This document shows, one piece after another, positions 1-60,779 of a DNA stretch of 64,000 nt (positions within the stretch are counted from its first letter, which is position 1; every line of letters begins with the position of its first letter). The position numbers were made by a program, and so were the translations under genes. The stretch lies in the sequence record NC_019517.1. One strand, written 5' to 3'. The notes under the pieces are model-generated. The model did not search any database, was not told the DNA's origin, and saw nothing but the letters and a program-made list of their open reading frames with translations. The stretch is from Escherichia phage FV3.

Positions 1-1983
1 TTATTTGATGTTATTCTTTGTATCGATCAGTTCACGGTATTCAATCATAGCAGGGGTGTCCCAATATTTCAAGCCTACATGCTTTAAAAGTGGATATTTC
101 TTTTCCAATCTTGCAATATAGGCCTTCCCGCACTTAACTCGGTTGGCGATTAAGACTTTGGCACGATGATTCAGCTCACCGTACTTCCACGTGGTGCTAC
201 CTTCCCACTTGTGGAAATGTGGCCGATAATTTCCAAAATCCTGCATGGGTATAATTTTACCTAACTGTCTATACAGGCTGTCATATGAAGTTTCATTTGC
301 TGCGCGAGTCAGTAAGAATTTCCAAGCATCCTCTTTCAACAAATGTTCCACATTCTTCTCTGTAACATATTGGCAATTAGGATCAGTCCAAAGCAGACGA
401 GATTCCGATACCAGGTACAGATCTTCCCCTTCAGGGATCTGAAGTGCTGCACGCACACGGTCATAATCTTGCTGGTAGATGTTACTCATCTGACCTAGCC
501 AACAACTTCCACGTTGGATATCCCCCTCATACGGTATGCAGTGCTTAATCTTCCTGAACTCTGCCTTGGTAATACGCTCACGACGGAAGTAACCATCCTT
601 CTCAAGTTTTTTAACCCAATAACCGGGCTCATAACGAGTTTTTGTTTCACCTTTCTTCACAGGTCGGCGAGGGAGCTCTGATAACAATTTGACCGTATCT
701 GCAAAGAACGGATGGTGTGCCGCCTCTTTAAACTCTTTTACCAGATCCGCATTCCGGCAATAGAAAACGTTGCGTCCGGTGATCTCGCTTAAGTAGTTAC
801 ACTTATTTCGGTTATATTTACCGTCTCCGTCGTTAAATACTAAATAGACTCCTCGTAAGAATTCTACCTTTCCGTAACAAGCGTAGCCTATGCGGCCTTT
901 ATTTAAGCCACCTGCGAAGATCTCGCAGTCCCCCAAACTACCTAACCCTGCTTCTTCCCAACGGCTATACATAAAATTCTTACCGAAAATGTGCCCGAAC
1001 ACTCCACTGTTCTTCATCATCTCGCGTGCTTCTGAGGATGTTTTTGCTGTCTCCAGTTCTGCAACAACTTCTGCTCCACGAAGGCGAATACCTTCTTTGA
1101 CAAAAGCTTCCAAACGCTCTTGGAATCCACCATCATCGTGACCTTCTATGGTCCATTCACGCCCTGGGTTAATATTGCAGTCTCCGATAGGGATCTCTAC
1201 ACAAATTGCAGGATAATCTGTTAGTGTTTCCAGGAACTTAGAACGGTAAGGTTGGTGACCCATTACCACACGACTCTCGTCAGAGCTGGTATATCCCTTC
1301 AGGATGGTCATCTTCCAACCATCTTTTTCATAATAATACTGCGCCTCTACCTTATCCCCCTCCAGCATTTTGCTCGTCATTGGATCGGTGACGGTGAACG
1401 GGAATTTTGCATAGCGCAGACATGATGCAATAGCAGTGCGATATTTCAGAACATGCTCTTTCTTAACATGAAACTGAACTTTTACCCCGTTGTGCTCTTC
1501 AGTCTTCCGCTCACGGATCTTGGTGACATTTGGGATACCCTGATCCAAGAACAATAGATATGTGCTTTCCACACCATTGTGCACACTGATTACATCGAAA
1601 GTGTCCACCATGCTGAACGGGGCCTTTGAACCAACACCTTTATTGCCTACCAGAGCGTTGCTGTTGCGCTTGGTTGACTCACCGAGGTTCATGAAAGTGT
1701 TGCGGACCATCTCTTCTGACATACCGAGGCCAACGTCCTGCACAAAGAAGTATGGTTCAAGATCTGTAGGAGAGTGAATGATGATCGGAACATCACCACG
1801 TCCAGACTCAACATGGGAGTCCACAGCATTGAAGATTGGCTCACGGCAGCTTGCCAGCACCTTATCTTCATAAATCCCTTTAATGATTAACCCAAAAGTC
1901 TCTTTGTTCAGAGAAATTGATCCCCTTGTGACCTCCAAATTCCCAGTTAGCACTGCTTTAGTTTCATTACTGTTTACAATCAT
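1..1983 (-). CDS. rIIA: rIIA-like protein with N-terminal GHKL (histidine-kinase-like) ATPase fold; complete ORF, stop codon at 1-3
   Basis: N-box EPIFNAVDSH, G1 box DVGLGMS and G2 box GNKGVGSKAPF align by eye with T4 rIIA RELITNMIDAH / RDFGPGMS / GGFGLGSKSPF; 660 aa against T4 rIIA 725 aa. rIIB would lie beyond the left window edge. Confidence 0.65.
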   Translation of the reverse strand: MIVNSNETKAVLTGNLEVTRGSISLNKETFGLIIKGIYEDKVLASCREPIFNAVDSHVESGRGDVPIIIHSPTDLEPYFFVQDVGLGMSEEMVRNTFMNLGESTKRNSNALVGNKGVGSKAPFSMVDTFDVISVHNGVESTYLLFLDQGIPNVTKIRERKTEEHNGVKVQFHVKKEHVLKYRTAIASCLRYAKFPFTVTDPMTSKMLEGDKVEAQYYYEKDGWKMTILKGYTSSDESRVVMGHQPYRSKFLETLTDYPAICVEIPIGDCNINPGREWTIEGHDDGGFQERLEAFVKEGIRLRGAEVVAELETAKTSSEAREMMKNSGVFGHIFGKNFMYSRWEEAGLGSLGDCEIFAGGLNKGRIGYACYGKVEFLRGVYLVFNDGDGKYNRNKCNYLSEITGRNVFYCRNADLVKEFKEAAHHPFFADTVKLLSELPRRPVKKGETKTRYEPGYWVKKLEKDGYFRRERITKAEFRKIKHCIPYEGDIQRGSCWLGQMSNIYQQDYDRVRAALQIPEGEDLYLVSESRLLWTDPNCQYVTEKNVEHLLKEDAWKFLLTRAANETSYDSLYRQLGKIIPMQDFGNYRPHFHKWEGSTTWKYGELNHRAKVLIANRVKCGKAYIARLEKKYPLLKHVGLKYWDTPAMIEYRELIDTKNNIK

Positions 1984-2480
1984 TTATTGCGCTCCTTGTA
2001 GTAGATATGACTCCCGAATTGAGCTGTCCTCTGCATCTTTTTTGCCCATTCCGGTCGTACTTTTGTTGTATGATAGTGTGTTGCTCCACCTGTTATATCC
2101 ATAGCCATGTATGCAACATGGTTGTTATTATAGACCTTTAGAAGCATCTTTGCAAGACTTTTAGCGTGATCCCATGAATCTTTTTCTGTCACCTTAAAAG
2201 TTTTGCCGTGGTTTGTCCACGAAAACTGGTTAGGTTGGTAGACAATCTTTCTTATAGTGTCTGGGTATTTAGGGTGAGATTTCCTGTTCAGTGTGGCAAA
2301 CCCAGATGCCAACATACCCATCGTGCCATCTCCTCTGGCTTCCCTGTAGATATTGCATGCCAGAATGTTCTCCTTAGTATCCGATGGCTTGCAGGTGTGA
2401 TATACTTTTTGTTTTGGTGCTGCAACAACAGGCAGCGATAAAAATGCGCTCAAAATAATAGCAAAGATTTTAATTTTCAC
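1980..2480 (-). CDS. Secreted SleB/CwlJ-family cell wall hydrolase (candidate endolysin)
   Basis: N-terminal signal peptide MKIKIFAIILSAFLSLPVVAAP; NIYREARGDG and QFSW motifs typical of Hydrolase_2; GTG start with GGAG RBS; stop overlaps rIIA start by 4 nt. Confidence 0.55.
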   Translation of the reverse strand: MKIKIFAIILSAFLSLPVVAAPKQKVYHTCKPSDTKENILACNIYREARGDGTMGMLASGFATLNRKSHPKYPDTIRKIVYQPNQFSWTNHGKTFKVTEKDSWDHAKSLAKMLLKVYNNNHVAYMAMDITGGATHYHTTKVRPEWAKKMQRTAQFGSHIYYKERNK

Positions 2481-4104: not shown

Positions 4105-4373
4105 TAGTAAAAGTCCTCTACTTGTGTGTAAGTGTTTTCAAAGTTTTCCAAAACAGACATCACATCGGATCTGTCAATATCATACGCAACTCTCCAGCCA
4201 TATGCAACCCTTTCTGCTGTTGCCTCTTCTGGAGCTAGTCGTCTGCTGGCATAAAAGAGTGTTGGAGTACACTTTCTTGCTTGCCCTCTAACTTTCCCAT
4301 AATAATATCTGTGAATATCTTTGTCAAAATTTAATTCTTTTTCTGCACGAAGTTCGTACTGCTGGTATAACAT
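4104..4373 (-). CDS. Hypothetical protein (89 aa)
   Basis: ORF tightly packed in leftward early operon; 1-nt overlap with downstream gene. Confidence 0.4.
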   Translation of the reverse strand: MLYQQYELRAEKELNFDKDIHRYYYGKVRGQARKCTPTLFYASRRLAPEEATAERVAYGWRVAYDIDRSDVMSVLENFENTYTQVEDFY

Positions 4374-4417
4374 CTCTACTACTCCTTAAGCAGCATCCTT
4401 GCCGCCATCCCTACCCA

Positions 4418-4798
4418 CTAAAATGCAGTCCGAATCCAGACAAGGTTCTTATCTGCCCAATCATAGAGGCAAGTCATTGCACTATTGAATTGCTCACACG
4501 GAGGATAATCTTCTTCCATCTGGCGCATAGCAGAGCCTTGTGGGTAAAGCTCCCGTGCTGCAAACCACGCGTCGTAGTCATCAACGGTATCGAAGTAGTA
4601 TACAACATCCTCCAACTCAGGATCGAACTTTGAGCTATCAGGATTCAGTTGTTCAGGGAACTTGGAGCGTAACTTGCCAGCCACAATACTTGCCAACTCG
4701 CTAACATGCTTGTTGTCCCACTCTACCAGTTTCCCGTCTTCAGCTATGCGTCCTAACCACTGATCATGAAGGTCAACTGTTGTCTTCCACTGGGCCAT
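4418..4798 (-). CDS. Hypothetical protein (126 aa)
   Basis: ORF in operon context. Confidence 0.4.
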   Translation of the reverse strand: MAQWKTTVDLHDQWLGRIAEDGKLVEWDNKHVSELASIVAGKLRSKFPEQLNPDSSKFDPELEDVVYYFDTVDDYDAWFAARELYPQGSAMRQMEEDYPPCEQFNSAMTCLYDWADKNLVWIRTAF

Positions 4799-4800
4799 TA

Positions 4801-5058
4801 TCAGTTCACCTCTTCTTCTCGTTGCAGTTCAAGATACCCATAGGTCTGGATATCTTCAAGGGTGTGGAACTCTCCATCTGCTGCTAAGGCACGGACAACC
4901 TGGCATAGAGTTTTATAAGGTACTTTCTCCAAACCCAGATTCAGCGCAGGAAAAACCTTATCTAAGTCAACAAAATATACAAACTGTAGCTCACCAGTTT
5001 CAAAAGGCGTATCTTCGATAAACATCTTCTCGGCATTAGTCAAGATCTGCACTTTCAT
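4801..5058 (-). CDS. Hypothetical protein (85 aa)
   Basis: ORF in operon context. Confidence 0.4.
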   Translation of the reverse strand: MKVQILTNAEKMFIEDTPFETGELQFVYFVDLDKVFPALNLGLEKVPYKTLCQVVRALAADGEFHTLEDIQTYGYLELQREEEVN

Positions 5059-5435
5059 TATTCTACCCCCTCTTCTTTTTCTTCAGTATTAGTCTCAGTG
5101 CTACCCCACTCTGGAGTTTCCACCTCGATAGTAAACTCACGCACTACACGGTAATTGCCCATGAAGCGCTCCACTTCTTCAAGGCTTATGGAGAGGCCAT
5201 TGGCAACCAAGTCTGCAGCACCCTTCTCTACCAGGTAGTCCAGATTGGCTTCCAAGGCTTCAGGCTCAAACCCTGTCAATGCAATCATATAACCTTCCCC
5301 TTCATCAAGGAGGGCAATACAGCCCAACTGATTTTCTTTAAAAAAGCAGTGACCGTCATTATTGATTGGTTGTTCATTGCAGTAAATGGCTGCACGATAA
5401 GTGACTTTGGACATCGGTAAGGCCTCCTTAGGCAA
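5058..5435 (-). CDS. Hypothetical protein (125 aa; start may be at internal Met 8)
   Basis: ORF in operon context; overlapping stop/start junctions. Confidence 0.4.
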   Translation of the reverse strand: MPKEALPMSKVTYRAAIYCNEQPINNDGHCFFKENQLGCIALLDEGEGYMIALTGFEPEALEANLDYLVEKGAADLVANGLSISLEEVERFMGNYRVVREFTIEVETPEWGSTETNTEEKEEGVE

Positions 5436-19736: not shown

Positions 19737-21482
19737 TTAACGTTGTGCAATAACCACATCCACAATATCACCAACACCACAATATGTCAATTGTAGCAAG
19801 GTAACGCTGTTGGCTTTGTTGTTAATGACAGGGGTAGCCGACAGTATGGCATATTTATCGTGCAAAGTCACGTTGTGGCCTACAGCATCTTGAATGACAT
19901 AGATGATTGCAGTAAACGGGTAAGGTTTATCTTCAGCCGATGTTCCAGGCCATTGGCCTATTGTAAAATCCCCTTTCGCGTGGACAACATACATACTGGC
20001 CTGCCCGTTAGGTGTCCATGTCCCACTCGATGCGTCAACCTCCTCTAAATCAAAATCTACCTTCCCTGCGTGGAAAGTAGGGGCAGTAATAGTTTTACCA
20101 GCCTCAATTTCTTGAGAGGTGGTTATCTTACCACTAGAGTTAATGCCATTGCAGACAAAGTTGACATTAGAGAAGTCTGGCAGCCACCCAGTCACCGTGC
20201 CGGATATTTCAAGGTTGTGAAGATAAGTGGTTCCCGTACCTGCTGCGTTTAAACTAACATCTCCATTTACCTGCAAGTTGCGGGTAACGTTGCAGTTTTC
20301 AGAGTTTGCAGTTGTTGCAGTTAGAGTAGTGGTTGTCAGCTCGGTAATCGTACCTTTGTTGGCGGTAAGCCCTTCCCCTTCAAAAGTGGCACGCTCATTC
20401 ACCCTCAGAGTATTTAAAGATATGTTCTGGACAGATGCTGTGCCACGAATGACTATAGATCCGCCAACCTCTAAATCTCCATTGATCAGTGCATCTCCCG
20501 TGCTTTCAATATAGCTAGGGTAGATCATGGTGCCATCTACAGAGTAGGTTATCCCTGTAACGGTGCCTGTCACCTCAAGGTTCTTAACCCTGGTGGTCCC
20601 ATCAACCTGCAATGTCGGTTCGGTTGCTGCCTTCATGGAGTTACCACGAATGTACACGTAGTCAAAAAAGTTATTACCTAGACCATCAAAATGCACATCG
20701 TTGTTATTAGCCACTGGTTTCCCAGAAGTTATAGTGTCAGCTATAACTCTGTGGGTGACCACTTCATGAGGTTGCAGCTCTGTGCTTCTCCAGTCTGCAT
20801 GCTTAGGATCGCTCCACGCAAAAGTTAGTGTAGAAGTATTTGCAGTAAGGATTAGGTTCCTGAAGCGTGCAGTAGAATCCGCTCCATTAACAGGCCCGTG
20901 TAAGGTAAGGGTGCCACCAACTATAGTGTTAGCAAGTTCTGTAAGACCTTTTACCACCAAAGACCCTACAGTAACTTTCATCCCCTCCATGGCTTTAAAT
21001 ATGCTATCCACATAGTCAACAACAAACTCTGTGTTTGCTATAGACTCGGACTTATCGTCCATTGGAGGTGTAGGTACTCGCGGGTCACCTTCGAATCTTG
21101 GGCTGTTAAGTTTTGCGTAGTATTTTGCCATTACTGCAGAATCGGTATATAATCTCCAGTTCGGAGATTGTGAAGGATCTGCTGGCATCCTAACCGGGTT
21201 AGATTTTGATGCTGCTGGGGCGTACCACCACTGAGGGCCTGTATCCCCTTTAAACTCATACAACTGGTTAAAAACTGTTGTGGATGCACCATACGCCCAA
21301 GGGATTGGTGGCGTTTTAAAATAAAGGGTGTCAAGCATGGCTTTTCGTACCGTAGGGATGGTGGTCCCATCCTCTACGACAACTTCATCCACAGCGTTAC
21401 CGTTGACAATCAAGTGCAAACGTTCAGAATCAACAATTACTTGATCTACCGCCTGCTCGAAGCTTGTCATGTCTTGCGCCAT
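19737..21482 (-). CDS. Tail fibre / tailspike protein (581 aa)
   Basis: Repetitive beta-helix-like segments (NLEVTGTVTG, NLQVNGDVSL, NLEISGTVTG); position in fibre module. Confidence 0.5.
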   Translation of the reverse strand: MAQDMTSFEQAVDQVIVDSERLHLIVNGNAVDEVVVEDGTTIPTVRKAMLDTLYFKTPPIPWAYGASTTVFNQLYEFKGDTGPQWWYAPAASKSNPVRMPADPSQSPNWRLYTDSAVMAKYYAKLNSPRFEGDPRVPTPPMDDKSESIANTEFVVDYVDSIFKAMEGMKVTVGSLVVKGLTELANTIVGGTLTLHGPVNGADSTARFRNLILTANTSTLTFAWSDPKHADWRSTELQPHEVVTHRVIADTITSGKPVANNNDVHFDGLGNNFFDYVYIRGNSMKAATEPTLQVDGTTRVKNLEVTGTVTGITYSVDGTMIYPSYIESTGDALINGDLEVGGSIVIRGTASVQNISLNTLRVNERATFEGEGLTANKGTITELTTTTLTATTANSENCNVTRNLQVNGDVSLNAAGTGTTYLHNLEISGTVTGWLPDFSNVNFVCNGINSSGKITTSQEIEAGKTITAPTFHAGKVDFDLEEVDASSGTWTPNGQASMYVVHAKGDFTIGQWPGTSAEDKPYPFTAIIYVIQDAVGHNVTLHDKYAILSATPVINNKANSVTLLQLTYCGVGDIVDVVIAQR

Positions 21483-21491
21483 GATTTCTCC

Positions 21492-21758
21492 TTAAGCTTT
21501 TTGCTCTTCGTTTTTAACGTGGTCAGGGTGCTGGCAACCCCACCGGAGCGAGATGAATTTGCTAATAAGCTGGGGGCAGGCTACTGAAGGTGCGTATATC
21601 CACGCATACCATTCAGGAAGCGTATCATTGTACCCCATATGAATAAAAACCCCAGTCATCACTGCCATGCCTATGTTTGACCATAGCTTAGATTGGGACA
21701 CTTTTGTAGGGTCATCAGATGCTGCAACCAGTCCCCATAAAAACTGAGTTAATTTCAT
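21492..21758 (-). CDS. Small membrane protein (88 aa), holin candidate
   Basis: Two to three hydrophobic segments and a charged C-terminus (DHVKNEEQKA). Confidence 0.35.
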   Translation of the reverse strand: MKLTQFLWGLVAASDDPTKVSQSKLWSNIGMAVMTGVFIHMGYNDTLPEWYAWIYAPSVACPQLISKFISLRWGCQHPDHVKNEEQKA

Positions 21759-21767
21759 TTACCCTCT

Positions 21768-22814
21768 TTAAGCATAAGATATGGTGATCCATTGACCGTT
21801 TACAAATTTTTGAATAGCTCCAGTCCAATAGTCGCCCTGATACGGGTGTTTATAGGCGTAATTGCCGGAGCACATTACATGCCCAGGGTATACTCTTGAT
21901 TCTCTGTAGGTGGTTCTGAAACGGTTTGCTATCCTTACATCTTCAACACCCCTACTAGGCATAGGAATAGTAAGGTTACCACTACTGTCTGCGCTACTAC
22001 CATTTACCCTGCGGACCACGTTTCTTCCACCAACTGTTGCATATTGACCCCTGGCGGTTTTATCGTTACAATCTACTCTTCCGCCTATTTGAGCGCTGCC
22101 GCAGGATTGTTGTCCATTAACAGTGGCTCTAGGTATCGTTACCGCATTAGCATTTGCAGAGGAGCTTTTTGCATCATTGCATTCAAGATTTCCTTGGATA
22201 GCCAGTCTTGCACGGTTGGCAGTTATAGCATTGAGCTTCATAGCCGAAAACACAGGCTGCCCACCAGAAGGTTGAAATCTCCAACGGAAACCGTCTATTT
22301 GGTGAGAAGGATCATCAAGGTCTGTGCCGTCAGCGCCACCGATGTTGTCCATAATCCAGAAATCCATCATCGTCTTGTCTGGAGTTATGGTGGTGTATAT
22401 AGCCGCATTGTCTGTTGACGAAGATGCAAACTCGATCCTTTGAAGACCTAAAGTTTGAGTCTGGATCATTGTGTCTCCAGCCTTGTCAACATAAAGGTCA
22501 TCCATTTCTTCAGGTGAGTATACATTGAGAACTTGACGTGCAGCAGCTTTGTCTGGAACGTCTGCCAGATTATTAGTGACCCTTAAGAATCTATTATCCC
22601 ATCCAGGGACAACATCTTCTGTTAAATGCTTTAGCCACGCAGAGAGCATGTGGAGTTCAAAGTTAACAACTTCACATGCTATCCTTTGTGTCATATCCCA
22701 ACCTTTCAATCTCTCTTCTTTGTTCGGTTGAGATTTGTTCAACTCTCCTGTATTTTCAAGCACAACATCCTGGTTGGCCCAAATATCAAGAGGGATAACT
22801 GGTTTAGTCATCAC
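21768..22814 (-). CDS. Tail fibre protein, paralog B (P2 gpH-like C-terminus)
   Basis: GDTMIQ segment; C-terminal KFVNGQWITISYA resembles P2 gpH KYINGTWYNVAQV; roughly 35-40 percent identical by eye to 23827-24867. Confidence 0.6.
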   Translation of the reverse strand: MMTKPVIPLDIWANQDVVLENTGELNKSQPNKEERLKGWDMTQRIACEVVNFELHMLSAWLKHLTEDVVPGWDNRFLRVTNNLADVPDKAAARQVLNVYSPEEMDDLYVDKAGDTMIQTQTLGLQRIEFASSSTDNAAIYTTITPDKTMMDFWIMDNIGGADGTDLDDPSHQIDGFRWRFQPSGGQPVFSAMKLNAITANRARLAIQGNLECNDAKSSSANANAVTIPRATVNGQQSCGSAQIGGRVDCNDKTARGQYATVGGRNVVRRVNGSSADSSGNLTIPMPSRGVEDVRIANRFRTTYRESRVYPGHVMCSGNYAYKHPYQGDYWTGAIQKFVNGQWITISYA

Positions 22815-22901
22815 GTTCTCCTGAGAAAATTCCTTAAGGACTATTTTAACACTTTAGAGAACAAAATGCAAGAACGGCATCCTTGCCGTTCTGACCTTTG
22901 T

Positions 22902-23216
22902 TTACCTTTTACTATGCTCTACAAGCATGTGTAAAATCTTTTGCACATCGGCTCTGATACCGGAGACATCTGTCCTGACATCTTGCTTAAGGTCGTTAAT
23001 ATCGGCCTCTAGCTTACTTAACCGGGTCTCGATAATGGAATCAAGTCTATCTTTTGTAACCATGCTATTTTTCACTAAAATGAGGTCTTTCTCCAGCTCA
23101 TCCAGCCTCTTGGAAATGCCTTTCCATTTGGTGTGCCACTGGTTGAAAGCCCATACACAGATCGGGACAACGGTACCCATGCAGATACCGTACAATGCCG
23201 CCAAATCCAACTCCAC
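22902..23216 (-). CDS. Small N-terminal-TM, coiled-coil protein (104 aa)
   Basis: Hydrophobic N-terminus LAALYGICMGTVVPICVWAF followed by a charged heptad-rich region. Confidence 0.4.
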   Translation of the reverse strand: MELDLAALYGICMGTVVPICVWAFNQWHTKWKGISKRLDELEKDLILVKNSMVTKDRLDSIIETRLSKLEADINDLKQDVRTDVSGIRADVQKILHMLVEHSKR

Positions 23217-23227
23217 AACACCTCCTC

Positions 23228-23812
23228 TTAGAGGGTAGGTCGTTCCGGGAAGAAAATGTCAGGGGCTTTAGATGTATCTATTTCAAGAAGTTTTACCCTG
23301 TACATTTTCAAATCTCTGATGTTGCGTTTTTGGTCATCAGTAAGATCGTATTCAAGGTCAATCATGTCTTGATAGGCACCAATTCTAGCAGTAGCCCAAG
23401 CAAGTTCTGTCTCTATGACACCCTCTGCCTGTTGAACAAAGAATTCATTGTCTGTGACAAATTCATCACCAACTAAACGCAAAGCGTCGTGGTGGAGCAT
23501 AATGTTTTCTGGTACCTCTTCTTTTTTGGCGATAACCACACGAAGACCTGGAGCAGGCCACAAGGCATCAGGTTCTTCTGTAGATGTCTTAAGAATACCC
23601 TTCTCGTCAACAAGTAGGAAGATACAGCCTGGATTTTCTTGTCGCAGTGTTCGTGATTGCACATACCAATCGCCATCATCATTACGTAAAAAATATCCAG
23701 TGTATGCTGTGTAATCCTCAACCTCCTGAGGAGTCAGCTCCTTGGTCTCCTTGTTGGTGTAGTATTCGCCAGATCCCGGCTGGTAAAGCTTAAACTCTTG
23801 AAGTATTTTCAT
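23228..23812 (-). CDS. Putative tail fibre assembly protein (chaperone)
   Basis: 194 aa, directly downstream of a gpH-like fibre gene as for P2 gpG; assignment mainly by synteny. Confidence 0.4.
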   Translation of the reverse strand: MKILQEFKLYQPGSGEYYTNKETKELTPQEVEDYTAYTGYFLRNDDGDWYVQSRTLRQENPGCIFLLVDEKGILKTSTEEPDALWPAPGLRVVIAKKEEVPENIMLHHDALRLVGDEFVTDNEFFVQQAEGVIETELAWATARIGAYQDMIDLEYDLTDDQKRNIRDLKMYRVKLLEIDTSKAPDIFFPERPTL

Positions 23813-24879: not shown

Positions 24880-26952
24880 TTATGAGAAGTCTGGCGGGAC
24901 AACATCTTCTACATACCCTTTCAGAGCAACCTGCCCCATATGAAGCACGGTAGAATCTCTGGCGGTAACAGTGATGCTGTCAGACATTACTTGCGGGTAT
25001 GCCCACACATACTGTTTTACCTCAGGGTATCTATACTCTATGGTTGCCATGTTTCCGCAGATACATCTCCATAAAAATTCTTGGTAATTCCTGGTTGGGT
25101 CGTAGCCATATACCGGAGCAAGCTCTTTGCTAGGAACGAACCCTGCAAGGTATTGTATTTCAGACGGTTGCCAACCTAACTTAACGATAGGTATGTTTAC
25201 AGACTCTTTTGCCTTTTCAATACCCCCCTGCATCACCCAATCGTAGCACTCAGTGCAGAAGAAATCAAGAGCACCTGCTTCCTTTTTATATTGGTCAGCA
25301 AGGTTCAGCTTTTGCGTAAGCTCGGTTTCCATAATGGTCGGAAAAAACAGCAAAGCTGTCATCTGAGCCGATGCAGCGTGTGCTTTTATTGCCTTTGAAA
25401 TAGCTGCAATACGAGCTCCAAGCTTACCACGACAAAATGCTACATACTTGTCATAAACACCGCCAGTCTTAGGATCGTCAATAGTCCCAATGTCTAGTGC
25501 ATATTCACCAGTCTCATCATAAAACGCCTGTTTTGTAGGGTAGTCATAAATACAAGGCCTACGAGTATCGGTATTGAACCACCACCACGGTTCACCAATC
25601 TGCATAATTACTGGCAGGTTGTTTCTCATAGCGGCTGATGCAAAATTCTTAAATACTGCAGTAAGGAAATTCATACCCTCTTCAATGGTCGGAGACAAGA
25701 GGTAACTACAAGGCGTATAGCCTGTTTTAGCATAGTTATCGTTCCAATCTCTCTGGGTCCATTCCAACGGACAGGCATCGCTATAAAGCTCAAAGCTTAC
25801 AGACTGCATAACGTCGAAGTCGTGTCGCTTGGCATTATACATAAAGTCATCGTGCCATTTATAAGCTGCAGCGTTTAGAGCCCCTGTCCTGTTTATAGAC
25901 CATTGGGTTCCGGACCATGTGTAATCATAATAATGGCTCATACCAACATAATGGTTTATGGTTCCGGTATAGCCTAGACGCTTGATATTGCTCAACACCC
26001 TTAAAGGAGATACGTTCCACATATCGTCATATGCTGTGCAGATCCCAACGTCGTGCTCTTTCACCTGGATATTGTTAAGTTGCATCATCTTCCAGCCTGT
26101 GTCCGGCTGAAGCAGATCTAGACGCAACTCGCACTCTACATTTTCCGTTCTTGGGTCTGTGCTATTACTTACCCAATCTTTAGGCATGAGTGGTATTAAA
26201 ATCCTTCTCACCTGCCGAGGATCAACACCCATCATGTTGTTGTTCTGGTCCATCCCGACGCAGTCCTCGAAATCAATATGAATTTCTGCAACATTCTTAT
26301 CCTCTGAGATGCTGACAGCATATTGAGCTAAAGGAACATAGATGATTGTGCCGTCAACAAGGTCTACAGTCATAATCATCTTTTCAGGGGTGGAGAAGTT
26401 GCTGGCATTGGTTATTGACATTCTGAACCAAAGCTTGGTGTTTCTCATCTCGTAGTGATCATCAAATCCAATGCCGAAATGGTCATATTTGTCAACTGTT
26501 TCCCAAATGCACCCAGCCATGCCTCCATATGTTCTTGACACTAAACGGTTAATACAGCAGTTATTATCCGCAACAATACAGGTGCTTTCAGTCTGCTGTG
26601 TGGTTGTAACCCAATATCTTGGGTGAAACATTCTCTCCTCAACGGTATCCCAAGATATTCTGTCAAGATTCTCATCTGAAACTATTGTACATTTCGCTCT
26701 TTGTGTTCCAATCATAACCCCTTGGGAGTTTGATGAAAACTCCATAAAGAAGCTTCTTGGCAACCTGTTTGGCAATTTGTCAACAATTTCTACAGGAATC
26801 TCAATACTGGTTGCCCCAACCGGGATAGTTACATCGCCCTCAACATGATCATAATCCCTACCTGGAACGGCAGTATCTTGAACTGTGCGGTAATGAAACC
26901 GTGCAGCCATTGTAGAGTAATCACGGTAAGGTTTAAAAACAGCTGTTGCCAT
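24880..26952 (-). CDS. Large tail-associated protein (690 aa), possible enzymatic (depolymerase-like) domain
   Basis: N-terminal Calx-beta/Ig-like segment (GDVTIPVGATSIEIPVEIVD); Trp/Tyr-rich C-terminal region; immediately upstream of fibre paralog A. Confidence 0.4.
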   Translation of the reverse strand: MATAVFKPYRDYSTMAARFHYRTVQDTAVPGRDYDHVEGDVTIPVGATSIEIPVEIVDKLPNRLPRSFFMEFSSNSQGVMIGTQRAKCTIVSDENLDRISWDTVEERMFHPRYWVTTTQQTESTCIVADNNCCINRLVSRTYGGMAGCIWETVDKYDHFGIGFDDHYEMRNTKLWFRMSITNASNFSTPEKMIMTVDLVDGTIIYVPLAQYAVSISEDKNVAEIHIDFEDCVGMDQNNNMMGVDPRQVRRILIPLMPKDWVSNSTDPRTENVECELRLDLLQPDTGWKMMQLNNIQVKEHDVGICTAYDDMWNVSPLRVLSNIKRLGYTGTINHYVGMSHYYDYTWSGTQWSINRTGALNAAAYKWHDDFMYNAKRHDFDVMQSVSFELYSDACPLEWTQRDWNDNYAKTGYTPCSYLLSPTIEEGMNFLTAVFKNFASAAMRNNLPVIMQIGEPWWWFNTDTRRPCIYDYPTKQAFYDETGEYALDIGTIDDPKTGGVYDKYVAFCRGKLGARIAAISKAIKAHAASAQMTALLFFPTIMETELTQKLNLADQYKKEAGALDFFCTECYDWVMQGGIEKAKESVNIPIVKLGWQPSEIQYLAGFVPSKELAPVYGYDPTRNYQEFLWRCICGNMATIEYRYPEVKQYVWAYPQVMSDSITVTARDSTVLHMGQVALKGYVEDVVPPDFS

Positions 26953-58549: not shown

Positions 58550-60097
58550 TTAGATAAAACGCTTGAACATAGAAGGTGATGAGATTGATGGAATCACACA
58601 AGGAAGTGCTACCTCCTCTTTCTCCAGGAAATTAATCGCAGAAGCTACACAGTCGGCCCAATCGTCTTTTCTGTTAAATGTTGATCTTTCCCCGTTGAAT
58701 TTTTCAAGTTCAGTCAGAAATGCTTCCAGAGTATCAGGATGGAAACTGGATTTTACAATCCTCACCATTCCTTGTTGGGCAAGATTGGCAAAAGGTGAGA
58801 ACCTTGTCAGTTTAGATTTGTTGGAAGGCATTGGGTCTTCTTCAACCCTAAACCCTTCGGCAAGCAAGGATCTGGAGGAGGTTAAGAACTCACTCTTACC
58901 TGCCTGACCGGGGTCCACAGAGAATACGATTATACAATCATCACCATCAAACTGCGCCTGTTTCCTGATGATCACATCTCGTTCACCAGCCTTTTTACAG
59001 AACTTGCCTTCCAGACCTGTGGAATACCTCCCGTCATCCACGTTCTCAGGACAATAATCCCCGGACAGGTAATAAAAGCCGTCGCTATCTTTACTTACCT
59101 TAACACTGGCGGTAAAGTCAGGAAATTTATTACCGGAAGTTCTCTCGGTTCCTGCTTTATCCCATGCCCTGCAAGACACTGATCCAAGGGGCACTCTATC
59201 GGCATCACGAAGGAAAGATCTTTGAAAATAGTTTGCACCCTCAGGCTTTGCAAACCAGTTACCATGGAGAAGCTGAGCTTTTTCAAGCTCGGGCAGACCT
59301 TCAAGGAAAGCAAGGTATTCTGGGTTGTCTCTTAAGCAGACAGGATTATCGAAGATTGTTGCGCCTATAAACGAGAATGACAACGGTCTCGGCTTGATCT
59401 CTACACCCAGTCCGTTAACCGTGGTGTATTTCTCTATCAACTCTTCTTTAGAGTCTCCCCAGATAAATTCACCGTCGCGTCGGATAAAATATCTTTTCTT
59501 ACCGCATTTCTCCGGATCTGGATACCCTTCATCGTCCAACCACCACCTAACCAGTTTGGCAAGCATGTGTTCTGAATCGGGGTTACAGCTGATAACCATT
59601 CTTGATGGATACTTTGACTGAGATCTCAGACGAGACATCAGATAGTCTATCTGCTCCCATTCGAACTGCGTGCCCTCATCGAAGCAAACCATGGTATACT
59701 CAAGCCCTTGATGGTTAAGCTTATCTTGTACATACTCCATGTGGCAGTATTTTACAACAGCTCCCTTTTTGCTTCTATCCCACTTGCCAGTGTTCGGATC
59801 AAACCGTGGAAAAATGAACTTATGATCCTTCTCTCTGAACTTTGGCTTAATGTTTTCAGGCAGATCACTATAAATAGCTACTGCTTTAGGCCATAGTCCA
59901 CCCTCACCTTCCAACTGTGGGGTTGTTCTTCGGAACATAACCACAGAGCTGTGGGGGTCATCAATAATTTTAAGTGGCATCAGCTGCAAGAGGAACGACT
60001 TGCCAGACCCTGCGGCACCGCCGATTACCAAAATATCTGCATCGTTTTCGAGGATCATCTTCTGCTTTTCAGAACACGGTCCGTAAATCTTAGACAT
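58550..60097 (-). CDS. terL: Terminase large subunit
   Basis: Walker A VIGGAAGSGKS near the N-terminus; 515 aa; followed by portal. Confidence 0.75.
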   Translation of the reverse strand: MSKIYGPCSEKQKMILENDADILVIGGAAGSGKSFLLQLMPLKIIDDPHSSVVMFRRTTPQLEGEGGLWPKAVAIYSDLPENIKPKFREKDHKFIFPRFDPNTGKWDRSKKGAVVKYCHMEYVQDKLNHQGLEYTMVCFDEGTQFEWEQIDYLMSRLRSQSKYPSRMVISCNPDSEHMLAKLVRWWLDDEGYPDPEKCGKKRYFIRRDGEFIWGDSKEELIEKYTTVNGLGVEIKPRPLSFSFIGATIFDNPVCLRDNPEYLAFLEGLPELEKAQLLHGNWFAKPEGANYFQRSFLRDADRVPLGSVSCRAWDKAGTERTSGNKFPDFTASVKVSKDSDGFYYLSGDYCPENVDDGRYSTGLEGKFCKKAGERDVIIRKQAQFDGDDCIIVFSVDPGQAGKSEFLTSSRSLLAEGFRVEEDPMPSNKSKLTRFSPFANLAQQGMVRIVKSSFHPDTLEAFLTELEKFNGERSTFNRKDDWADCVASAINFLEKEEVALPCVIPSISSPSMFKRFI

Positions 60098-60384
60098 TAA
60101 CCTCTCTCCTTTGGAAACAGTGTTCTAATATAGTCTTGCAAAATGATCAATTTAGCTCTATCATTGCTACAAGACAGATTATTATCCCTCATAATGCCAG
60201 AATTCACTGCATCTGGCGCACCTTTCTTCAAAGGCATAGCTTTAGCAGGTGGTTTCATGGCACCTTCTGGGGGTTTAACAATCAACCTTCCTACATCAGG
60301 AGGGTCAATCTTGTATTCTCTCTCAACGCTGGTTGCACACCCACATAATAACAAGCACACAATAAACAGTGTAGCAACTCTCAT
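60097..60384 (-). CDS. o-spanin-like outer-membrane lipoprotein (Rz1-like)
   Basis: Signal peptide with LLCGC lipobox-like motif; Pro-rich mature region; stop overlaps the terL start (TAATG). Confidence 0.5.
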   Translation of the reverse strand: MRVATLFIVCLLLCGCATSVEREYKIDPPDVGRLIVKPPEGAMKPPAKAMPLKKGAPDAVNSGIMRDNNLSCSNDRAKLIILQDYIRTLFPKERG

Positions 60385-60779
60385 TGATCCTCCTGATTGA
60401 TACTCTCATTATAAATATCTATAAGCTGATCAGGAAGTGTTGACTTCTTGCCTTCAGGTGACTGGAGGTAGATAATCTGCTTTTCTTTACCTGCCTTCTC
60501 AGCCATATTTAATTTATCCTGCAGATCAGAAAGGGATTTTTCAAGGTTTTTAACCTCCTCTGCGTGGCCCATTTTAATTTTGTCGGCCTGCTTTTGTTGC
60601 TGATCAAGGATCCGTTCCCACTTTAACTCTGTTGCTGACACACCTTCTTGGTAGGCATCATTAAGCTTAGAGTTAAACCAATACACGGCCCCAAGATAAG
60701 CTGTACCTAGCGCAGCTGCAAAAACTAAACCTTTTATGATCCCTCTATACCTGCTCAGCCATGTTAAAACTGAAATCAT
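60381..60779 (-). CDS. i-spanin-like protein (Rz-like)
   Basis: N-terminal TM segment GLVFAAALGTAYLGAVYWF then charged coiled-coil periplasmic domain; 4-nt overlap with the o-spanin start. Confidence 0.55.
   Translation of the reverse strand: MISVLTWLSRYRGIIKGLVFAAALGTAYLGAVYWFNSKLNDAYQEGVSATELKWERILDQQQKQADKIKMGHAEEVKNLEKSLSDLQDKLNMAEKAGKEKQIIYLQSPEGKKSTLPDQLIDIYNESINQEDQ

Follow-up and report, generated by a model that had tools for sequence, protein, structure and literature searches.

In phage T4, the holin gene t adjoins the fibre genes 37 and 38, and the holin T and the antiholin RI both place their soluble domains in the periplasm. In T7, the gene order runs from tail fibre gp17 through holin gp17.5 and TerS to the spanins and TerL. 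A further design is represented by the releasin gp25 of phage Mu (DUF2730, PF10805), the product of a late gene, which comprises 99 amino acids (aa), has type I topology with four residues in the periplasm, two basic residues at the junction and a cytoplasmic domain of 73 aa, and acts on an endolysin of the signal-anchor-release (SAR) type, with its gene located within five genes of that endolysin (Chamblee et al., 2022; PMC9239132). Here, we compare with these systems two small genes of Escherichia phage FV3, located in a 64,000-nucleotide (nt) stretch of record NC_019517.1 (hereafter, the window), which an earlier note had singled out as holin or antiholin candidates embedded in the tail fibre module:

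22902-23216, minus strand: gp31-like gene, 104 aa, GTG start, phrog_5345
21492-21758, minus strand: gp29-like gene, 88 aa, ATG start, phrog_1322 ('membrane protein')

We tentatively favour the interpretation that gp29 and gp31, with or without a third membrane protein encoded between them in related genera, are late non-virion proteins controlling lysis at the cytoplasmic membrane, with the label of holin or antiholin denoting a candidate rather than a finding. The window belongs to an rV5-like Vequintavirus, its DNA being 95%–99% identical to that of more than 110 rV5-like Escherichia phages (HMD-6, Bas56 AlexBoehm, JES2013 and others), and the host phage of both small genes is a virulent 137-kb myovirus, not a transposable phage. 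The gene order is the same as in rV5, in which the 88-aa and 104-aa open reading frames (ORFs) are gp29 and gp31, respectively. Both ORFs were confirmed on the minus strand at exactly the coordinates first given for them, and both are real genes inside the late structural and tail fibre block. The gp31 gene is preceded by the Shine–Dalgarno sequence AGGAGG, 4 nt before the start codon, and the gp29 gene by AAGAGGG, 3–4 nt before the start codon, in each case overlapping the stop codon of the preceding gene. The proteins match phrog_5345 (gp31, E = 1.1e-48) and phrog_1322 (gp29, E = 2.7e-32), and tblastn detects homologues of gp29 in 372 phage records and of gp31 in 222, with a diverged gp31 type, that of phAPEC8, in 136 further records. 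Given the matching phage families and these hundreds of homologues, neither gene can be a chance ORF; furthermore, the counts (372 vs. 222 + 136) are consistent with co-occurrence of the two families in essentially all of the ~370 genomes of the group. Co-orientation with the tail fibre and baseplate block and overlaps with the neighbouring genes suggest late expression of both.

Comparison of related genomes places the two genes within a larger unit. In Seunavirus PVP-SE1, Mydovirus KNP2, Certrevirus CB7/PcCB7V and Aeromonas Plateaulakevirus 2L372X, the full order is short fibre, chaperone, gp31-like protein, a 146–157 aa protein with four transmembrane (TM) segments (4-TM; phrog_7451), gp29-like protein and long fibre. 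In PVP-SE1, KNP2 and CB7/PcCB7V, 4 nt of the gp31-like gene are shared with the 4-TM gene, and in PVP-SE1 1 nt is shared with the chaperone gene; the gp31-like gene directly follows the Caudo_TAP chaperone gene in all genomes examined, including phAPEC8, where the gp29-like gene is found directly upstream of a baseplate wedge gene. A 1.4-kb metagenomic contig (ENA ERZ2272065 NODE_7214; L004, positions 227-921) carries genes for a chaperone, a gp31-like protein (107 aa), a gp29-like protein (124 aa) and a fibre, the gp31-like and gp29-like genes being adjacent, with a 4-nt overlap and no gene between them. The window lacks the 4-TM gene, and the tblastn matches listed for this gene in the phage collection include no rV5-like phage; in rV5-like phages, its slot is occupied by a second short-fibre paralogue (21768-22814 in the window; compare positions 4189-5258 of locus L010), as though one gene had replaced another within the membrane cassette. 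We regard the gp31-like, optional 4-TM and gp29-like proteins as an ancient cassette of inner-membrane proteins in the fibre and baseplate gene block, inherited in the group of myoviruses that includes rV5, PVP-SE1, phiTE, phAPEC8/phi92 and Plateaulakevirus.

The products of the cassette appear not to be incorporated into virions. Mass spectrometry of CB7 virions identified 26 proteins, including the flanking CB7_31, CB7_36 and CB7_37, without CB7_32–35, which correspond to the chaperone (CB7_32) and the three membrane proteins; similarly, the rV5 mass spectrometry table contains no gp29 or gp31 peptides, with the caveat that this method readily misses small hydrophobic proteins. A search of the PDB retrieved no chain matching any of the three cassette proteins, the phiTE baseplate entries 9cuy and 9mjn holding both short and long fibres, and a 2026 paper on the phi92 structure does not mention them. 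On the strength of the CB7 and rV5 data and the PDB searches, we rejected a role as virion components and consider the gp29-like, gp31-like and 4-TM proteins to be non-virion proteins in the relatives tested.

The 104-aa protein was initially described as one N-terminal TM helix followed by a coiled coil, and this description is upheld by hydropathy, structure prediction and heptad pattern alike. A 4-residue acidic N-tail is followed by the TM helix (residues ~5–23; Kyte–Doolittle 1.9 and Hessa sum +1.9 kcal/mol for residues 5–23), a basic junction and an 81-aa heptad-repeat helix, in which the hydrophobic fraction is 0.67 at the a/d positions versus 0.18 elsewhere. AlphaFold2 models residues 3–103 as one continuous helix (predicted local distance difference test [pLDDT] score of 68), and gp31 is annotated in the rV5 Table S3 as a membrane protein with one transmembrane domain (TMD). 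Among 12 family members, the N-tail of 2–6 residues carries a net charge of 0 to −2, is acidic in 11 and in none contains a basic residue before the TM segment; 1–4 (mostly 2–4) K/R residues stand just after that segment in all 12, ahead of a C-domain of 79–89 aa. Because basic residues are lacking before the TM segment and present after it, the positive-inside rule predicts an N-out/C-in topology, with the coiled coil of ~80 residues in the cytoplasm, and gp31 is accordingly predicted to be a membrane-tethered cytoplasmic coiled-coil protein. An exhaustive phmmer search with gp31 against 1.84 billion representatives yielded only 12 matches, none linking to an annotated family; seven of these are full-length family members, and the others are truncated or fused copies or coiled-coil noise.

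This build resembles that of Mu gp25. Both proteins are ~100 aa long, with a mostly acidic N-tail of 2–6 residues, a TM segment at ~4–23, 1–4 (mostly 2–4) K/R residues after it and a helical C-domain (77–89 aa in this comparison), the topology of gp31 being predicted; the general releasin architecture, namely ~100 aa, a single N-terminal TMD, predicted N-out/C-in orientation and a cytoplasmic domain, recurs in 12 of 12 gp31 family members. In hhalign comparisons, the gp31 family and DUF2730 align over 57–91 collinear columns with P values of 3.7e-4 to 5.4e-4, at a probability of 30%–37%, which is below accepted thresholds; the scores of 25.2–26.7 compare with a maximum of 22.1 in 30 column shuffles, 12.5 in two reversed controls and 7–20 for eight other small lysis or membrane proteins. 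HMMER searches with PF10805 gave no match for the window gp31, nor at E <= 10 for any of the 12 family members, compared with 2.5e-13 for Mu gp25 itself. The two proteins also differ in that the C-domain of gp31 is a regular heptad coiled coil with a net charge of 0 to +3, whereas that of gp25 is mostly anionic (PMC9239132), with a less regular heptad. Furthermore, releasin genes lie near an endolysin gene in transposable phages, whereas the hydrolase nearest to gp31 is ~20 kb away in a Vequintavirus, of which the main endolysin in rV5 is soluble rather than SAR. We conclude that gp31 has the build of a releasin, yet it cannot be assigned to that class. The neighbours of the Mu releasin gene, gp24 and gp26, were considered as relatives of gp29 and show no similarity to it.

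The predicted topology also bears on a literal T4-like interpretation, whereby gp31 would be a T-like class III holin, an RI-like antiholin or a spanin-like protein with a periplasmic coiled coil, and gp29 a classical holin with two or three TMDs and a basic tail. Such an arrangement would agree with the position of T4 t beside genes 37 and 38 and with the gross layout of gp31, in which one N-terminal TMD precedes a larger soluble domain as in T, RI and inner-membrane spanins (i-spanins); however, the charges of the 12 gp31 family members predict the opposite orientation, with almost the whole protein in the cytoplasm, gp29 offers no more than one convincing TMD, with a tail that is neutral to acidic, and the true spanins are encoded elsewhere. 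We therefore consider this interpretation very improbable. For gp31 as a second i-spanin specifically, two-component i-spanins are N-in/C-out, with a periplasmic coiled coil and an outer-membrane spanin (o-spanin) partner, whereas gp31 is predicted to have the reverse orientation and gp29 lacks a lipobox; this candidate was rejected on account of the predicted topology, the missing lipoprotein partner and the true spanins at 60097-60779, and hhalign comparison of the gp31 family with three i-spanins gives scores of only 11–20.

The 88-aa protein conforms less well to its initial description as holin-like, with two to three hydrophobic segments and a charged C-terminus. The tail is indeed charged, although its net charge is neutral to acidic rather than basic, and the hydrophobic segments reduce to one plausible but marginal TMD (~25–43) and a doubtful second, which is probably interfacial. 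The best 19-residue Kyte–Doolittle window of gp29 is 1.05, and the Hessa sums are +5.8 kcal/mol for residues 25–43 and +9.6 kcal/mol for residues 53–71; the corresponding values are +1.6 to +4.5 for helix 1 in relatives and +7.4 to +9.8 kcal/mol for segment 2. The values for helix 1 (+1.6 to +5.8) are within the range that we computed for the TMDs of lambda S and S21 from reference sequences. In the rV5 Table S3, TMHMM and Phobius predict no TMD for gp29; Octopus and Phobius predict one for the PVP-SE1 orthologue. The AlphaFold2 model is poor (pLDDT 58), with helices at residues 3–11, 22–41, 44–55 and 62–73. Overall, the layout comprises an N-terminal amphipathic helix, the marginal TMD, a conserved aromatic segment, EWYAWIYAPSVACPQLISKFISLRWG, and a short charged tail, which in relatives carries a variable extension of 0–40 residues rich in acidic residues, Tyr and Arg. 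The family alignment contains 39 invariant columns, with the conserved core K-(L/F)-W-S-N-(I/V)-G-M...M-T...E-W-Y-x-W-(I/V)-Y-A-P...L-R-W-G. The source label 'DUF2644' attached to a metagenomic homologue (P0017) could not be reproduced, none of 14 members having a Pfam match even at E <= 10.

gp29 invites comparison with class II holins and pinholins such as S21: it, too, is small (88 aa), and its weakly hydrophobic first helix, rich in G, A, S, T and M, is succeeded by a short loop, another helix and a charged tail. Unlike these holins, gp29 has a second segment that probably does not cross the membrane, a tail that is neutral to acidic and a highly conserved sequence, and it lacks a family match. 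As small proteins with at least one TMD, clear in gp31 and marginal in gp29, both have the minimal attributes of holins, although the part of gp31 beyond its TM segment is an 81-aa coiled coil, unlike the short charged tail of holins. Neither protein matches a holin or antiholin family in Pfam, PHROGs or NCBIfam.

The recognisable lysis genes of the window, those of the spanins, with which any holin would be expected to work, and the gene of a SleB-like hydrolase are located far from the cassette:

60097-60779, minus strand: o-spanin (60097-60384) and i-spanin (60381-60779), phrog_1267 and phrog_4297 'Rz-like spanin', also annotated in rV5; adjoining the large terminase gene
1980-2480, minus strand: SleB-like cell wall hydrolase, 166 aa, phrog_938 endolysin, PF07486 in the rV5 Table S3

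The observation that no holin is recognisable beside either of these loci holds within the window, the main endolysin being encoded outside it. That endolysin, rV5 gp89, at ~71.5 kb, is a soluble, lambda R-like enzyme without a SAR segment, and a true holin is therefore to be expected; nevertheless, the literature on rV5-like phages and their relatives describes no proven holin. The published rV5 candidate, gp129, was picked solely on the prediction of two TMDs by two programs; confined to the genus, it sits in a block of many small ORFs with sigma70-type promoters, and none of the 30 records listed calls it a holin. The authors of the CB7 study proposed a different small gene, beside SleB, for which rV5-like phages have no room because their SleB gene overlaps rIIA. 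In PVP-SE1, gene 244, downstream of SleB, was considered as a CB7_82-like holin with two TMDs and rejected, since its product is not hydrophobic; the annotation of this phage contains no gene named holin, and the membrane proteins that it lists as shared with rV5 are only those of genes 42, 44, 57 (tape measure) and 78 (i-spanin). Endolysin type varies between the genera; the spanins are constantly encoded beside TerL. Like T4, rV5-like phages carry rIIA and rIIB, and in a CRISPRi-ART study of the rV5-like phage EdH4 the targets were capsid and rII genes only.

An ORF-level census of the small hydrophobic proteins common to rV5 and PVP-SE1 returned the spanins, SleB, gp31, gp29, gp90/g119 and perhaps gp236/g6. 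Thus, the notion that gp29 and gp31 are the sole small membrane proteins shared by these two phages was not upheld, gp90/g119 and perhaps gp236/g6 being shared as well; still, the alternatives are few, which we count in favour of a lysis role. The rV5 protein gp90 (positions 1110-1316 of locus L018; outside the window) comprises 68 aa, is encoded directly downstream of the endolysin and has a strongly hydrophobic N-terminus with Cys residues in a lipobox-like context; its 36%-identical homologue in PVP-SE1, gene 119, is located away from the endolysin of that phage. We regard gp90/g119 as another conserved small envelope protein.

Scattered lysis genes have a precedent in T7, where, as here, a small membrane protein gene stands straight after the tail fibre gene, the spanins are beside the large terminase and the endolysin is distant. 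The suggestion that a holin gene could plausibly be placed next to fibre genes is thereby strengthened by a real case, gp17.5 following gp17. The T7 locus differs in having one gene where the window phage has two, and gp29 and gp31 show no sequence or profile similarity to the gp17.5 holin (hhalign scores of 13.5 and 8.1); by analogy, the dispersed layout provides circumstantial support for a role in lysis. Under this scenario, the gp29-like protein, together with the 4-TM protein in other genera, would be the candidate membrane-permeabilizing or holin component, and the opening that it makes would give the soluble lambda R-type endolysin access to the cell wall, after which the spanins encoded beside TerL would complete lysis. 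The gp31-like protein would not form pores but would serve as a membrane-tethered cytoplasmic coiled-coil regulator with the build of the Mu releasin, acting as an antiholin-like or releasin-like timing factor, possibly on the signal-anchored SleB-like hydrolase. We infer the membrane insertion of gp29 and every functional step of this scheme. The SleB-like enzyme is the sole peptidoglycan hydrolase in the window and the hydrolase nearest to the cassette; its N-terminus is signal-like or signal-anchor-like (MKIKIFAIILSAFLSLPVVAAPKQK), with a hydropathy of 2.29 over residues 1–24. As an exported second peptidoglycan hydrolase, it could lyse cells with no need of a large-hole holin; alternatively, it may serve in ejection or as an ancillary enzyme. 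Its RefSeq name is 'endolysin'. If gp31 does act on this hydrolase, it may represent a releasin-type factor outside transposable phages, and the recently discovered releasin class would reach beyond Mu-like phages.

Several observations weigh against lysis control. Besides the lack of any sequence or profile match of gp29 or gp31 to holin or antiholin families, the hydrophobicity of gp29 is marginal, its second segment is unlikely to cross the membrane and its tail is not basic. In addition, the conservation of gp29 equals that of the baseplate wedge, an unusual degree for a holin: identities to the PVP-SE1 and CB7V proteins are 52% and 46% for gp29 and 60% and 52% for the wedge, compared with 33% and 20% for the chaperone, 33% and 23% for gp31 and 30%–37% for the spanins. 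The small genes are separated from the nearest hydrolase by ~20 kb and from the spanins by ~37 kb, phages of the rV5 genus dispense with the 4-TM member, and the gp31 gene invariably comes after the fibre chaperone gene, also in phAPEC8, in which gp29 has been relocated next to the baseplate wedge gene. The resemblance of gp31 to DUF2730 is not significant (hhalign probability of 30%–37%, no HMMER match), and the Mu releasin has a SAR endolysin as its target within five genes, neither of which applies here. The original holin or antiholin proposal thus survives in part: gp31 is an integral membrane protein, both proteins are non-virion and the holin of the group is missing; on the other side, no holin family is matched, the predicted topology of gp31 is opposite to that of T and RI, gp29 is weakly hydrophobic and highly conserved without a basic C-terminus, and the synteny with fibre genes fits a role in assembly equally well.

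The local context on which the assembly alternative builds is as follows, with the minus-strand order running from baseplate wedge gp36 through gp35, the 690-aa sheath-like fibre protein gp34, short tail fibre 1 (gp33, 346 aa), the Caudo_TAP fibre chaperone gp32, gp31 (104 aa), short tail fibre 2 (gp30, 348 aa), gp29 (88 aa) and lateral fibre gp28 to the 1877-aa fibre gp27:

23228-23812, minus strand: tail fibre assembly protein, 194 aa, rV5 gp32, Caudo_TAP PF02413 (E = 1e-11), phrog_136
22871-22892, minus strand: terminator-like hairpin from a consensus scan, pattern match only
21768-22814, minus strand: second short-tail-fibre paralogue, 348 aa, rV5 gp30, phrog_4465 (E = 5.6e-163); context, outside the membrane cassette
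19737-21482, minus strand: lateral tail fibre, 581 aa, rV5 gp28, phrog_4549, Bas56 and rV5 annotation; directly downstream of the gp29-like gene, context only

According to this alternative, gp29 and gp31 would be membrane-anchored morphogenetic factors, that is, non-virion helpers of the folding or attachment of short or lateral fibres or of the assembly of the baseplate periphery. They would work at the inner face of the cytoplasmic membrane alongside Caudo_TAP, with the gp31 coiled coil as an oligomeric scaffold. Fibre chaperones (Caudo_TAP/Mu gpU; T4 gp57A) are likewise non-virion proteins encoded directly beside fibre genes, and T4 gp57A sets a precedent for small coiled-coil fibre chaperones. 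In every genome examined, the gp31-like gene comes right after the fibre chaperone gene, and the gp29-like gene always abuts a fibre or baseplate gene, such as the wedge gene in phAPEC8; the cassette proteins are absent from virions, as is the chaperone CB7_32, and the evolutionary rates of gp29 and gp31 match those of the baseplate proteins and the chaperone, respectively. Moreover, the predicted cytoplasmic coiled coil of gp31 stands where fibres fold, and gp31 shows weak coiled-coil matches to fibritin-type families. However, the known fibre chaperones are soluble, and a membrane-anchored fibre or baseplate chaperone would, to our knowledge, be without precedent; gp29 and gp31 are without similarity to any chaperone family, with no match in PHROGs or Pfam, and the missing holin would be left unexplained. 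Synteny itself is weak evidence because gene order in large virulent phages is mostly inherited, T4 t likewise staying beside genes 37 and 38. We consider a role in morphogenesis nearly as likely as lysis control, and its stronger form, in which the cassette would constitute a dedicated phage-encoded inner-membrane platform for assembling short or lateral fibres or the baseplate periphery, unlikely. Were assembly nonetheless the function, the cassette would reveal a membrane-bound step in myovirus tail morphogenesis and would be the first such membrane-anchored machinery described for a myovirus. A related idea, suggested by the gene pairing in rV5, that gp29 is the chaperone of the second short fibre, was rejected, because gp29-like proteins are present in genera without that paralogue. 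The hairpin between gp31 and the second short-tail-fibre gene, which it precedes, has a 9-bp stem with five G-C pairs followed by TGCATTTTGT and lies 10 nt past the gp31 stop codon; it has no counterpart in PVP-SE1, KNP2 and CB7V, in which the gp31-like gene overlaps the 4-TM gene.

Absence from virions and location among receptor-binding genes would also suit proteins of superinfection exclusion or host takeover (morons), which block secondary infection or shield progeny from inactivation on debris. Imm and Sp of T4, Llp of T5 and Cor are small envelope proteins, Llp and Cor being encoded beside receptor-binding genes, and the combination of a protein with one or two TMDs and a single-TMD protein is similar in size to the Imm/Sp pair; in addition, PHROGs assigns phrog_1322 to the category 'moron, auxiliary metabolic gene and host takeover'. 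By contrast, retention of the two genes in ~370 genomes is the behaviour of core genes rather than of morons: the hosts span Escherichia, Salmonella, Klebsiella, Cronobacter, Pectobacterium, Erwinia, Serratia, Proteus and Aeromonas, and the receptors differ, with lipopolysaccharide core and enterobacterial common antigen in some phages and flagella in others. Furthermore, most of gp31 is predicted to lie in the cytoplasm, whereas a protein that masks a receptor or inhibits an incoming tail lysozyme would have to be on the opposite side of the membrane, and the cassette is part of the late structural block, in contrast to the early exclusion genes known from virulent phages. Exclusion or takeover is, in our view, improbable.

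The rV5-like, PVP-SE1-like, phi92-like and related myoviruses rank with the coliphages and enterobacterial phages that are isolated most often, and therapeutic and biocontrol cocktails make use of them. With soluble endolysins and known spanins in the group, the conserved non-virion membrane cassette narrows the search for the holin to two or three small genes. Whether lysis control or assembly proves correct, misleading labels would be replaced: database names for members of the cassette are inconsistent and probably wrong, including 'lipoprotein' for the gp31-like gp089 of phAPEC8 (locus L013, 8941-9276), 'ATP synthase subunit b protein' and 'putative serine protease' in PcCB7V (locus L011, 5001-5794), 'DNA polymerase exonuclease subunit' in K54lambda1.1.1, and 'tail fiber protein' for gp31 in HMD-6. 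The middle gene of the cassette in Aeromonas phage 2L372X (NC_048770; locus L014, 4496-4936) is a 146-aa four-TM ORF without RefSeq annotation, located in a 500-bp 'gap' between genes 075 and 074. Precomputed Pfam matches, in families named after phage phiTE, assign the 4-TM protein to PF26221 (Phage_phiTE_239) and the fibre to PF26208/PF26209; our own Pfam scans of three 4-TM proteins did not return PF26221, and no phiTE-type family was seen for gp31-like or gp29-like proteins among the precomputed matches.

Two further observations concern the surroundings of the cassette. The 690-aa protein encoded upstream of the short fibre (24880-26952, minus strand) matches the non-contractile tail sheath domains NCTSP_N and TIM barrel (E = 8e-80) as well as a Calx-beta domain, although the phage is a contractile-tailed myovirus; its BASEL label is lateral fibre with glycosidase and deacetylase domains. 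Finally, ~16–21 records of 'Campylobacter phage' (host C. jejuni; GenBank MG0656xx) are 95%–100% identical to E. coli rV5-like phages across the region, which suggests that they are mislabelled or contaminant genomes.

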